From Octopus vulgaris (taxonomy: Eukaryota): 64,000 nucleotides of DNA. Under the pieces are notes generated by a model. That model ran no database searches. It saw only the letters and a list, made by a program, of their open reading frames with translations, and was not told the origin of the DNA. Shown here one piece after another: positions 3,621 through 58,836 of this stretch; position 1 is the stretch's first letter, and each line of letters begins with the position of its first letter. Where the stretch lies: assembly GCA_951406725.2 (NCBI GenBank), contig OX597818.1, forward strand, positions 138,136,001-138,200,000, given 5' to 3'. The position numbers were made by a program, and so were the translations under genes.

Positions 3621-3653
3621 TTTCTGACGAAGAGCCATGTTCGAAACGTTATA
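3621..3653 (+). ncRNA. Hammerhead-like motif with canonical core in a diverged family A copy
   Basis: ttt|CTGACGA|a|gagc-cat-gttc|GAA|acgt|T, followed by the family A downstream motif ctgagcgtcaaact. Stem I is weak. Confidence 0.5.
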
Positions 3654-4359
3654 TACCCACTCGTTTTTACATCTTATGCTGAGCGTCAAACTTTTCCTAC
3701 TCATCAACCATGAAGTTTTTTCTGACGCAGAATCTGCACAACCATTTCCAAAAACATATCAAGCTTGGCTTTACACGGCCTGAATAACTTAACTAAAAGT
3801 ATTTCAAAGCCGTCACATATTCATTTTACTTAGATACTAGTAGAGTATATGGAAAATCTAAGTACACGAATTAGAGGGAATGCATATAGTGTATCAAAAA
3901 CTCTCCTACTATTGACATACCCGTCTATCACTCCGACTTGAGAATGCACAGATGCCCACTAATGGTCGAAAATGAATTTTAATGAGACATCATGGATTTA
4001 AAACCAAGCTTTAAAGTCTGGAGGCCATCTGTTTTCTTCCAAATTAAGTTTAATGCTGAGGATGTCTTACCCAAATATTGTCGGTGATTCTTTGAAGAAA
4101 GTAACTCCACGATACGTTTTAGGAATTGTTGGGTTCAAATTACAAGCAATTTGATGAGAAGAGGAAAATATTCTAACAATCAAATTATATTCACGTGTGA
4201 TGGGATACAGGAGGCTGGATTAGATGCTAGAACTGCAGATGCTGGCACAAAAATGAACCAGTTCTAGATTTCAATCCTCAGAAGAGCAGAGTTTGGTAAA
4301 AAAAAAAAAGCAAAGAAGCCAAACTCGCTATCGTGAATTTGGGTTTCGTGTATATCTTC

Positions 4360-4603
4360 GTCTAGGCTCATGAATGACACGCGTCAACCTTTTCGCTAAT
4401 ACCTTGGCCAAAATCTTCACCTCTGCGTTTAGCAGGGTGATGGGCCTGAAATTATCTATTCTATCCTCCTTGCCTGAGTCTTTCCTGATCAGCGTCACCA
4501 CTCCCCGGCGTACAGATCTGGGGATCCTCCCATTCTGATTCCAGTTCGCAAAGACGCTGGCCAGTACTGGCCCGAACAAGTCGAGAAACAATCGAGAAAA
4601 CAA
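4360..4603 (-). mobile_element. L1/Tx1-clade LINE ORF2 reverse transcriptase fragment
   Basis: RRGVVTLIRK...IDNFRPITLLNAEVKILAKVLAKRL is the RT domain 1-2 signature. Confidence 0.85.
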
Positions 4604-4699
4604 GCGGCAGAAATGGGGTTTCTCTGAAGGATGTCATGACAGGGTACGTAGCTCGGAGATAAAGGAGTCTGTCAAAGGCAAGTCGTTACTTCTCTGCAT

Positions 4700-4945
4700 T
4701 GAGAGGTCGTAGCTTCGGTAATACAGACATGTGATTAGAATGTTGCGGGGACGAATCGCAAGACGACTCCTCAATCCCTGCTTAAACACCAGGAGACCTG
4801 GGGACAGACCAAGAAGAAGGTGGTTGGATAATCTCCATAATCTCAGTTGGTTCAGCTTAGGAATCCTACCGGAAACTGTAATGGTTGCTTCTGGGCCCTA
4901 CAGGACTCTACTCCCAGAAATAAAAGGTTGAGAAGATAGATAAAT
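4700..4945 (+). mobile_element. RTE-clade LINE 3' remnant
   Basis: RRPGDRPRRRWLDNLHNLSWFSLGI resembles the RTE C-terminal GRPxxRWxD motif. Confidence 0.55.
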
Positions 4946-5081
4946 GGATGAATAGATCTGACACATTAGGACAATGTGTTATTAATAGAATGCCATACAA
5001 CTTCCTTAACAATTATCTCATTATTGGACATATATTTTTAATAATTAAAATATCGCTATTAGAATAATTATTGGTTATGGT

Positions 5082-5533
5082 AAGGCGGCGAGTTGGCAGA
5101 ATCATTAGCGCGCCGGGCAAAGTGCTTAGCGGCATTTCGTCCGTCTTCAGGTTCTGAATTGAAATTCCTCCGAGGTCGAATTTGCCTTTCACCCTTTCGG
5201 GTTCGATAAAATAAGTACCAATTGAACACTAGGATCGATGTAATCGGCTTAACCTTTCCCTCAAAATTACTGACCTTGTGCCAAAATTTGAAACTAATAT
5301 TTAAGTTAACATAAGGCAGCGATCTGGCAGAATCGTTACCGCGTCGAACAAAATGCTTACTGGCATTCCGTCCGTCTTTACGTTCTGAGTTCAAATTCCG
5401 CCGAGCTCGACTTTGCAATTCATTCCTTTCAGAGTCGATAAAATAAGTATCAGTTGATTACTGGAATCGATGTAATCGATTTACACCTTACCGATCAAGC
5501 TTCCTGGCCTGGTACGAAAATTTCAGACCAATA
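5082..5533 (+). mobile_element. Two tandem copies of SINE family 1 (tRNA-like head, Meta-domain-like core)
   Basis: ggcggcgag(c/t)tggcagaatc head, B box gagttcaaattcc, core gactttgcctttcatcctttcggggtcgataaaataagtacc, tail type 3 (ccttgtgccaaaatttgaaac). Confidence 0.8.
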
Positions 5534-54816: not shown

Positions 54817-55189
54817 ACTTTCCCATTTTTCCCGAGCATCAAACTAATACACTTGCTTGTTGTCCCTACACCTGTTTTCGTCCTTGTTTTTCTATAAATT
54901 TGAACTAAGAAAAGTAAATGTAATGAATAAAGAAAATAAAGAACAAACGAATGATTGAATGAAATGAGTGAAGGAAGGGAGGAAGAAAAATAATGAGGAG
55001 AGTGATGAGGAAGAAACAGAAGAAATATTAGAAGAAATATACTTTAAGGGGAGAGAAGTGAAACGGATGAATGATATTAGTAAGTTTATAACTAAATGAA
55101 GGCCGAAAGAAATTGGCGGACGGAATGAAGAGTATAACAGAATGAATGAAAGAACTAAGGAAACGTGGGAGGGAAAGAATGAATGTGTA

Positions 55190-55547
55190 TCCGGGTTCAG
55201 TCCCACTGCGTGGCATCTTGGGCAAGTGTCTTCTGCTATAGCCCCGGGCCGACCAATGCCTTGTGAGTGGATTTGGTAGACGGAAACTGAAAGAAGCCTG
55301 TCGTATATATGTATATATATATAAGTGTGTGTGTATATGTTTGTGTGTCTGTGTTTGTCACCCTAGCATTGCTTGACAACCGATGCTGGTGTGTTTACGT
55401 CCTTGTCACTTAGCGGTTCGGCAAAAGAGACCGATAGAATAAGTACTGGGCTTACAAAGAATAAGTCCCGGTGTCGATTTGCTCGACTAAAGGCGGTGCT
55501 CCAGCATGGCCGCAGTCAAATGACTGAAACAAGTAAAAGAGTAAAAG
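55190..55547 (+). mobile_element. SINE family 2, 5'-truncated
   Basis: Starts at the B box, ccgggttcagtccc. Confidence 0.85.
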
Positions 55548-58252
55548 ATTATGTGTGTGTGTGTGTGTCTGTGTGTACATCTATATATGTGTGTATGCAT
55601 CTGCGTTTCTATGTATGTGCATGTGTGCGTGGGGGTGCTTGTATATATATGTGCGTATGTATGTATGTATATATGATAAGCGTGTATTCGTGTAGATACA
55701 TATATGTATAAATATATGAATATATGCATGTCTATCCATGCGTATATACGTATGTAAGAGTGCATACATGTATATGTATGGATATATATGTATGCATTTG
55801 TATATATATGCACCGTTATGTATGCATACGTATGTATGTAAGTATGTATGTATATATACGCACGTATGTATCTATATTTCTGTGTGTGTACATGTATTTG
55901 TTTTAGTAAATGTGTGAACACACATTTAAGAAAACAGATACATGTAAAGGCAAGCACAAACAGGCACACATACACACACACACACACACACACACACACA
56001 CACATGCACACACATACACACACACATGCACACACATACACACATATTCACACACACACGTGCAGAAAGACATGCTGTAGATATGTAAACACACGCAATC
56101 ATCCACACAGACAAGCACACCCAGAGATACGCACACAAACACAGGCACACACACTTATTCACACACACGTACCTATGCACGCATTCATACACGCATACAC
56201 ATGCCCTTACATGCATACACACAAACTGCAACTCACATGTTCCCACATAGAAACGCATATACATACACACTCATACACATGATTACGTACATAATCATAC
56301 GCAAAATCATACACACAAGCATACACACACGCATACACACACATACGAATACACTGACCATGATATGCATGTACAGTAATACATATACATATGCACAAAC
56401 AGAAACTCACACACACACACACACACACGCCCAGAATGTTTTAGATGCTCCCACATAGAAGAAACACGTACACACACACACAATCATGCCCAACAACACA
56501 TACACAAACGTACACAAGGTCACACACACGCACGCACGCACGCACGCACATGCACAGACCATCACATACATTTACAGTAATACACATATGCATGCATGCA
56601 CAAATAGAAACACGCACGCACAGAGAAAATTTTACACACTTCCACATAGCAACGCGTACACACACACATTCATACGCATAGTCATATACACAACCATACA
56701 CACACAATTCCACACACACACACACACACACACATATATCTGCATACATGCATGTCTGCGTGCGGACGGACATATACACACGAGCGCAGATATAGAGACA
56801 CAGAGAATGCATATGGACGGAGGCAGAGCGAAATTGCCACTTAATTGAGCAACTTATCATTTGAATAATCTAATAGTGAACCGCCTACATAGAATTAGAG
56901 GTCCTTAATAGCCGTCTGGCATCTAGTTCATAGGTTGTATGGGTTGTATATACGCTTCTGCCTTGGTCTACCCACGCCATTCGTACGTACAGGGACAACC
57001 TCCACGCACAATACGTACGTACGTACGTACGCATGCTTTCACCAAACACCCATTCACGTATTGACATACGAATATACATGCAACCGCGCTAACATAGTCA
57101 TGCAATGGTAAAACACACGCAGTGACGCAAATATCATTGCATACAAACACAAGCGCTTCAACACAAACACACACACACATACGTACACGCACACACACAC
57201 ACACACACACACACACGTACACGCACAACACAAACACACACACACACACACACGCACACACACACACACACACACACACACACACACGTACACGCTCAAC
57301 ACAAACACACACGTACACACACACACACACTCGTACACGCACAACACAAACACACACACACACACAAACACACACACACACAAACACACACAAACACAAA
57401 CACACACACACACACACACACACACACACACACACACACACACACACACACACACAAACACAAACACACACACACACACACTCACACACACACACACACT
57501 CACACACATACACATACACACACACACTCACACACACACACACACACACGTACACGTACACGCACATAAATACATGCATGCCCGGACGTTTTGTGGCATG
57601 TGTGTCTGTGTGTCTGTGCGTATGATGTAAGCTGTTCATTAGTAGACAGCTATGGAAGCGTGTATATAGTTATGTATGATGGAGGTCTGTCTTTCTATAG
57701 CTATATCTGGTGCAGGTGTATATACAGCTCTGTCTTTCTATAGCTATATCTGGTGCAGCTCTGTCTAATGGCTGTATACAGCTGTGTCTGATGTAAGCTG
57801 ATATATATTTTGTCTGATGGAGGAGTGCATGTACGGCTGTGTCTGGTGTCAGCTGTGTTATGTATCTTGTCTGATGGAGGAGCGATTATACACATATTTA
57901 TACAGTTATGTCTGATGTAAGCTGTGTTATATATCTTGTCTGATGGAAGAGTGCATATGCAGTTGTGTCTGATAGACGTATTTATACAGCTGTTAGGGAT
58001 GAAGTTTTTTTATGCAGTTACGTCTGATGCAGGTGTGTTTAAAGCCATGCCCTAATGTAAGTTGTGTTTACAAATTGTGTGATTAAGGTATGTGTATACA
58101 GAAGTATATGACAGGTGTGTATATACATAGGTGTGTATATACATTTGTATCTGATGCAAAGGAGGTATACATACATACATATATATATATATATATATAT
58201 ATATATATATATATATATATATATATATATATATATATATATATGTATGTAT

Positions 58253-58396
58253 CCGAGGTCGACTTTGCCTTTCAGCCTTTCGGGTCGATAAATAAAGTAC
58301 CAGTTACGCACTGGGGTCGATGTAATCGACTTAATCCCTTTGTCTGTCCTTGTTTGTCTCCTCTATGTTTAGCCCTTTCTGGGCCGTAAAGAAATA
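58253..58396 (+). mobile_element. SINE family 1, 5'-truncated, tail type 1
   Basis: Family 1 core and tail within (TA)n. Confidence 0.8.
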
Positions 58397-58801
58397 TATA
58401 TATATATATATATGGCTATGTCTGTTCAGAGCTGTGTATACAGCAGTGTGTAATGAAGGTGTGTGTGTATATATATATATGCGTCTGATGGCTCTGAGTA
58501 TATGCAGCTGCATTTGACCAGCGGTGTGTGTACAGCTGTGTCTGACGGAAATGTGTGTAGAGAGCTAAATTTGATGGATGTGTGGGTATATAGTTTTGTA
58601 TGGTGTAGGTGGGTTTCTAAACGTGTGTCTGTTTGTACAAAAGTACATATTGTAGGTGTGTACACACATATATATATATATATATATATATATATATATA
58701 TATATATATATATAGTGAGAATTTACAAAAAGCAAAAGACAAAGATGTGTGTGTAAACAACGAACAGATGTATTAGTTTAGCGCTCAGGAAGTGAGAAAG
58801 T

Positions 58802-58836
58802 CTTTTACGTTTCGAGCCTACGCTCTTCGACAGAAA
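58802..58836 (-). ncRNA. Minimal hammerhead-like motif, family A
   Basis: Reverse complement ttt|CTGTCGA|a|gagc-gtag-gctc|GAA|acgt|A|aaag. Confidence 0.6.

Follow-up and report, generated by a model that had tools for sequence, protein, structure and literature searches.

Family-specific hammerhead core variants in probable Penelope-like element stubs of Octopus vulgaris

Results

The stretch analysed here, hereafter the window, comprises 64,000 nucleotides of the Octopus vulgaris genome (assembly GCA_951406725.2, contig OX597818.1, positions 138,136,001 to 138,200,000) and carries three families of repeats, designated A, B and C, whose copies contain minimal type I hammerhead motifs. We consider it probable, at roughly two chances in three, that these repeats are 5'-truncated 3' ends of Penelope-like elements (PLEs), with family B likely derived from the Hydra clade, and that the core changes arose once in a master element and were passed on to its copies, since uncut RNA is the predicted substrate of insertion.

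A relaxed hammerhead search, suggested by an earlier sequence-only reading of this DNA, was run on the window with a descriptor for type I hammerheads that comprised stems I, II and III, GAA and an NUH triplet and allowed at most one core deviation (the U3-A8 form was counted as canonical). Six complete motifs were detected, compared with a mean of 0.27 and a maximum of 2 in 30 shuffles that kept the local dinucleotide content. The motifs are real. Three carry the CUGUYGA core (A6U) that had been noted for family A, at 54785(+), 58833(-) and 9625(-); two carry the CCGACGA core (U4C) of family B, at 42353(+) and 47615(-); and one carries the UUGAAAA core (U3-A8) of family C, at 23171(-). Stems I and II, GAA, a palindromic stem III and the NUH triplet are all present in these six motifs and are broken in the copies A1, A5 and B1. 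The expectation that a paired stem II and a closing stem I would accompany every named core fails at 26121(-), where stem II is broken, and at 3624, where stem I amounts to about 1 bp; stem III of family B is a 9-nt palindrome and is not very short.

The PLE consensus core, CUGANGA or its covarying U3-A8 form, is matched by family C and missed by families A (A6U) and B (U4C). Families A and C have an extra nucleotide after A9 and a G10.1-C11.1 pair; family B has an A-U pair without the extra base, and many Hydra entries also depart from the consensus at this point. No blastn similarity was detected between the three families. One region from each family was searched against Rfam and gave no hammerhead match at E≤10, and for the whole window nearly all of the 150 matches listed out of 430 were hairpin or microsatellite noise. 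As isolated monomers of 43-46 nt, only C (z -2.6) and one A copy (z -2.1) were more stable than shuffles, and the B monomer was not (z +1.2). Among predicted homodimers, a clear intermolecular stem III was obtained for the family B arm B2R only. The proposal that A6U and U4C stabilise an 'off' fold was rejected: open-core probabilities, each compared with a canonical-core control, were 0.007 vs 0.013, 0.156 vs 0.155, 0.036 vs 0.029, 0.053 vs 0.031 and 0.005 vs 0.019.

The copies are stubs of about 60-180 nt that start shortly before or within the hammerhead and end at most about 170 nt behind it. The insertions B2, B3 and C1 are inverted arm pairs of unequal length, in which one arm stops early and the other runs on into a tail. 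The short arms of B2 and B3 both stop in (TA)n, and (TA)n adjoins all three family B insertions. Craig et al. 2021 (PMC8557442) describe PLE insertions as heavily truncated at the 5' end, with an inverted truncated copy, a tail on one side and a bias for (TA)n; an inverted 5'-truncated copy with a one-sided tail was found at B2, B3 and C1. Head-to-tail tandem units with complete hammerheads, which characterise retrozymes, were not found, the copies being dispersed or inverted. The inverted arms at 42272-42331, 47623-47685 and 23186-23343, the stubs at 44993 and about 51146-51270 and a candidate at 37535(-) are additions to the sequence-only reading.

Family B has three insertions in the window, and it is on these that the U4C claim rests within it (3/3). 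The arm B2R (42335-42494, +) contains the core at 42353-42359 (U4C), a stem II with a GGAA loop, the 9-nt palindromic stem III, H17 at 42382 and an extended stem I, predicted to fold as 12 bp with a bulge, followed by a tail to about 42494. Its inverted partner B2L (42272-42331, -) has a decayed core, lacks the tail and ends in (TA)n. The second pair is formed by B3L (47500-47621, -), with the core at 47615-47609 (U4C), H17 at 47586 and a tail, and B3R (47623-47685, +), which is 5'-truncated within the core, is tailless and ends in (TA)n. The remaining insertion, B1 (26055-26136, -), has its core at 26121-26115 (U4C), a broken stem II, (TA)n on both sides and no tail.

In File S2 of Craig et al. 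2021 (PMC8557442), Hydra-clade hammerheads are given whose stem I is ctgt/acag and whose stem III, actc-n-gagt, precedes an A; all have U4 (Hydra-2_aMil; similarly Hydra-1/2_aJap). Family B has the same stem I and stem III near its 3' end and stands apart in its core by U4C. Metagenome contigs were then scanned with a pattern derived from the B stems in which either U or C was allowed at position 4. Position 4 was U in 134 of the 134 matches listed, which come from at least 120 loci (about 180 estimated). Upstream sequence of 250 nt or more was available for 80 of the 134 listed motifs. Ten of the 134 are preceded on the same strand, at a distance of 114-203 nt, by the C-terminus of one family of open reading frames (ORFs), a reverse transcriptase-endonuclease of the Hydra type. 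The association with Penelope ORFs that the sequence-only reading had proposed as a check is present at these canonical-core Hydra-type motifs outside the window, and no such ORF was found inside it. A complete ORF of 721 aa at one locus (L044) contains RWR, DKT, YRDD, CxCX5C and CxxC, the Hydra diagnostics (RWK in the published set); Pfam and PDB sequence searches gave no match for it. Full-length or nearly full-length Hydra-clade ORFs were also noted in metagenome contigs at L044:403-2565(-), L064:328-2493(-), L017 and L054, with L064 likewise lacking a Pfam match, and homologues numbered 2464 among 8000 scored candidates.

A hairpin behind the Hydra-type hammerheads is common to these loci, though it was absent from the search pattern. 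The GAGYAC tail motif lies 56-67 nt downstream of the hammerhead in 44 of the 119 listed loci with room for it, and 57-58 nt behind the hammerhead in B2R and B3L. Across 16 selected loci, two-sided changes affect two of its seven pairs, and 97% of cells are paired. We regard this conserved, covarying hairpin as a candidate reverse transcriptase (RT)-initiation stem-loop of the Hydra clade. Within the window, Hydra-type stubs carry tail hairpins at 42428-42450, 47541-47519 and 51223-51243, of which the first (B2, +, CTC..GAG-Y-AC) sits at the position seen in Hydra-clade PLEs. Over L002-L107 the hairpin was observed about 45-65 nt behind the hammerheads, directly after the end point of the tailless copies. 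Inverted pairs were seen in 14 of the at least 120 listed loci. With a covariance model built from the 16 loci, B2R, B3L and B1 were matched at E values between 6e-9 and 4e-6. On the strength of the Hydra-clade architecture and of the ORF linkage in other animals, family B is very probably PLE-derived, and its membership of the Hydra clade is likely. For this family the PLE origin proposed in the sequence-only reading is strongly upheld; for A and C it draws on anatomy and the published consensus.

A fourth Hydra-type stub, decayed, is located at about 51146-51270(+). Its stem III, H17 and tail hairpin are intact, its core and stem II are damaged, and the covariance model scores it at E 6e-5; it belongs to another family. 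A foldback at 37485-37590 holds a further candidate with the core CCGAUGA (U4C) at 37535-37529(-), a 6-bp stem I, a 10-nt near-palindromic stem III, a GUC site and a weak stem II. Its descriptor score is 11, compared with 0.025 motifs per shuffle at 10 or above. The stems are unrelated to those of B and the candidate is one decayed insertion, possibly of a fifth family, which hints that U4C may have recurred.

Contigs of public sequencing runs were aligned on B2R (42333-42494), the resulting shares being weighted by depth and not equal to copy frequencies. Family B is high-copy in three organisms, with 7729, 6110 and 5061 contigs aligned. From 42362 to 42461, no difference at 2% of depth or more touched GAA, H17 or either arm of stem III; those recorded were at CpGs, in the tetraloop (GGAA to GAAA), at the unpaired centre of stem III, at two stem I positions where G-U is possible and in the flanks. 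At least three upstream variants of B were seen at 42342-42347 in the aligned contigs, one of which would lengthen stem I by about 9 pairs. One run (X15, marked as possibly RNA) gave 556 contigs on B2R; it may hold DNA and was discounted as evidence of transcription. Viral contigs scanned for the B, A and 37535 motifs gave no matches.

Family C comprises the pair C1L (23041-23185, -), with the core at 23171-23165 (U3-A8), a 6-bp stem II, a 4-nt palindromic stem III and H17 at 23141, and C1R (23186-23343, +), which starts near the cleavage site and has about 50 nt more tail. A further stub, C2 (44993-45162, +), is 5'-truncated within stem II and retains the tail. The supplement of Cervera and de la Peña 2014 (PMC4209133) gives the core UUGAAAA for the PLE-linked entry Schistosoma_mansoni(4), and U3-A8 is a known covariation. 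Because this core is already published with that covariation, family C is an ordinary member of the known PLE hammerheads and not the under-described variant that had been supposed. Its anatomy and the published consensus make a PLE origin probable.

The copies of family A are single. Their start lies in a pyrimidine tract, 45-55 nt ahead of the core, and two copies have their end at or close to a microsatellite; no inverted partner arm was seen for any A copy. A3 (54746-54906, +) has the pyrimidine tract, the core at 54785-54791 (A6U), a predicted cleavage site after 54812 and a 3' tail. A4 (58715-58870, -) has its core at 58833-58827 (A6U) and H17 at 58806, and its 3' end lies a few nucleotides before (TA)n. 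A2 (9500-9676, -) starts after (TACA)n and has its core at 9625-9619 (A6U), a 5-bp stem I and H17 at 9598. The copy near 43490, A5 (43430-43608, +), is decayed, as had been noted, and carries G5U as well as A6U in its core at 43493-43499. The fifth copy, A1 (3575-3700, +), has a canonical CUGACGA core at 3624-3630 and a broken stem I. Four of the copies can be aligned by blastn and are 70-83% alike. A1, which had been placed in the same family (at 3621), shares a GAGC..AACT block with the other copies; its similarity to them is patchy, with no blastn match at 1e-4. It keeps A6 and is likely a divergent sister subfamily. Stem II is paired at 95% across the five copies. A6U is common to four of the five, and it must therefore predate those insertions; the claim that the A and B substitutions preceded amplification is borne out to this extent within the window (A, 4/5 copies; B, 3/3 insertions). 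Prokaryote genomes gave no matches for a strict A pattern and about 120 for an 18-base A pattern, close to the approximately 100 expected by chance. By its sequence, family A is a standard minimal PLE hammerhead carrying A6U, and its anatomy together with the published consensus points to a probable PLE origin.

Several other features were observed in the window. A weak RVT_1 match at 4331-4633(-) (E 0.008) was rejected as a PLE ORF; we take it to be a LINE-type (long interspersed element) RT fragment, and it lies on the strand opposite to A1. A weak HTH_7/HTH_32 match at 48820-49134(-) is possibly a DNA-transposase remnant. Long foldbacks at 8591-8766, 8813-8871, 9755-10215 and 47815-48052, several of them beside (TA)n, contained no hammerhead in our scans and may be other PLE stubs or miniature inverted-repeat transposable elements (MITEs). 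Families resembling short interspersed elements (SINEs) are abundant (5081-5535, 25336-25726, 10225-10603 and 38367-38568, plus copies), the largest counting approximately 18 loci within the window; on visual inspection some seem to be derived from tRNA.

Discussion

The arrangement of the stubs can be accounted for by a mechanism in which a PLE RT-endonuclease, the element's own or a borrowed one, would nick TA-rich DNA. Synthesis of the cDNA would begin at either of two points around the hairpin of the tail, giving copies with or without the tail, and would stop at or just past the hammerhead, leaving a short stub; an occasional template switch would produce the inverted arm. Copies that span the cut site would derive from uncleaved or religated RNA. 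For a Poseidon element, RT is reported by Frangieh et al. 2024 (PMC11167929) to start at two sites in a stem-loop, which would explain the optional tail. The same source describes uncut RNA as the main substrate and finds that catalytically dead hammerhead mutants insert in vitro as well as wild type. Because copies spanning the cut site need uncut or religated RNA, a slow core would be tolerated or even favoured while the stems are kept.

Published mutants allow the activity of the three families to be predicted. U4C lowers activity yet supports a viroid (PMC3088659), and A6C cleaves about 10^5-fold slower at 0.3 mM Mg2+ and is active in Mn2+ (PMC7151607). The order expected from these mutants is C > B >> A: C would be weakly active as a dimer, B (U4C) would have reduced activity, and that of A (A6U) would be very low when Mg2+ is the metal ion. 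Dispersed copies would mostly be inert, since they lack a tandem partner and inverted arms would fold together into a long hairpin. A bolder proposal is that several independent and successful PLE families (B, A and the 37535 candidate, two of them with U4C) lost catalysis and kept the fold and the tail hairpin, so that the hammerhead would serve mainly as a handle or stop signal for RT and slow cores would have been selected since only uncut RNA is copied. We regard this proposal as rather unlikely.

A number of observations weigh against the derivation of these repeats from PLEs with copied core changes. No PLE ORF was found in the window, where tblastn gave a best E of 0.23 and the Hydra profile a best E of 1.3. 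There was also no GIY-YIG domain among 150 of the 157 low-repeat window ORFs, although Pfam misses the true Hydra ORF too and this is a weak test. The minimum-energy form of the B monomer is not a hammerhead. The covariance-model matches on B are partly circular because the search pattern was derived from B, and a profile of the tail only did not detect B (E 12). In the contig alignment on B2R, differences are listed only from 42362 on and the expected CpG decay is also missing before that point; the core lies in this blind zone, so that the alignment is not a test of U4C. C4 of the B core is part of a CpG, and a few per cent of the copies would be expected to have reverted to U4 by decay. Covariation among the five A copies was not significant (186 of 500 shuffles were equally high), and no homologue of A was found outside the window in viral contigs or prokaryote genomes. 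The mechanism itself is borrowed from a Poseidon element in vitro.

One rival reading holds that the hammerhead likeness of A and B reflects chance or random decay in unrelated SINE or MITE foldbacks. The lack of Rfam hammerhead matches, the weak monomer folding and the presence of other foldbacks without a hammerhead in the window are consistent with it, but a motif excess of about 20-fold, the same change in all informative copies and unequal arms with a tail, unlike terminal inverted repeats, make it very improbable. Stem I and stem III of B are identical to those of published Hydra hammerheads (PMC8557442), and for that family the reading is already largely refuted. Alternatively, the variant cores could be fully functional ribozymes, assisted by protein or by dimer formation, that process PLE transcripts in vivo, with substitutions that are neutral or serve as tuning, for instance towards Mn2+ or slow kinetics. 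The compensatory U3-A8 of C is known to be active and U4C sustains a viroid in vivo (PMC3088659), A6C retains activity in Mn2+ (PMC7151607), and a PLE hammerhead from Anolis cleaves only with its protein (PMC11167929). The catalytic positions G12-A14, stem III and H17 showed no variant at 2% or more in three organisms, and a second U4C candidate with different stems exists at 37535. Against this, U4 in all 134 listed Hydra-type motifs and in the Hydra entries of File S2 indicates that U4C is not generally tolerated, and family A has only a 3-5-bp stem I and no tertiary-contact helix to offset A6U. We consider full function improbable.

It could also be argued that B, and perhaps A, represents a separate, short and non-autonomous element that lost catalysis and kept its fold as a handle for a PLE RT acting in trans. 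The start points agree with this: B copies begin no more than about 10-20 nt from the core, their best-supported loose ends match over only about 10 letters upstream and form at least three variants, all A copies begin about 45-55 nt upstream of the core, and no ORF is nearby in the window. Yet an upstream ORF accompanies so few of the listed Hydra-type motifs (10/134) that short stubs are to be taken as normal for autonomous elements, and neither a promoter nor a tandem array was seen. This possibility is, in our judgement, quite improbable, and 5' truncation of PLEs with core changes inherited from a master remains the reading that we favour.

Craig et al. 2021 (PMC8557442) call the role of PLE hammerheads unclear. 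High-copy families united by one core change, together with canonical-core relatives that share their stems, are ready pairs of variant and control for testing whether the ribozyme is needed. Descriptor and Rfam searches undercount such motifs. Should the variants merely be slow, the known list would be extended, a minor result. Lünse et al. 2017 is said to be a paper on PLE hammerhead variants and may already list U4C or A6U.

Among known systems, families A and C resemble the minimal type I PLE hammerheads of Cervera and de la Peña 2014 (PMC4209133) in their U-rich flank, extra nucleotide after A9, G10.1-C11.1 pair, GAAA, 4-nt palindromic stem III, NUH, 3-5-bp stem I and mostly single, truncated copies. 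The core of C equals that of Schistosoma_mansoni(4), and its AAUU-U matches a Crassostrea entry in the same work. Family A differs by A6U, and no such core was found in the supplementary alignment searched, one further supplement file lying outside that search; the supplement searched has no cephalopod entry ('Octopus', 0 matches). Family B resembles the 3' ends of Hydra-clade PLEs (PMC8557442) in stem I CUGU/ACAG, stem III ACUC-N-GAGU, A at H17, (TA)n targets, an inverted truncated arm and a tail with the same hairpin spacing. It differs in its U4C core, in a stem II that is one pair shorter and closed by A-U, and in having no ORF in the window, and it is unlike the Hydra-1_Obim hammerhead, which has other stems.

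The same core positions vary in nature, with low to full activity, in U4C (viroid), A6C (phage Bcep176) and U3-A8 (Perreault 2011, PMC3088659; PMC7151607). Those variants are single ribozymes with full stems, whereas the changes described here are common to high-copy transposon stubs. A6U itself was not found in the literature searched. Neither U4C nor A6U is reported for PLE hammerheads in the literature and two supplements searched, a search that did not extend to Lünse et al. 2017, one file of PMC4209133 and the bioRxiv supplements, and no report of the Hydra tail hairpin was found in the same material. Non-LTR (long terminal repeat) retrozymes (bioRxiv 10.64898/2026.07.22.740005) are, like the stubs, non-coding and PLE-derived and have a type I hammerhead; they form head-to-tail tandem units with complete hammerheads, whereas the stubs are dispersed or inverted. 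The kind of element is well known and the C core is already published, and judged by the literature searched the core variants of families A and B appear to be new.

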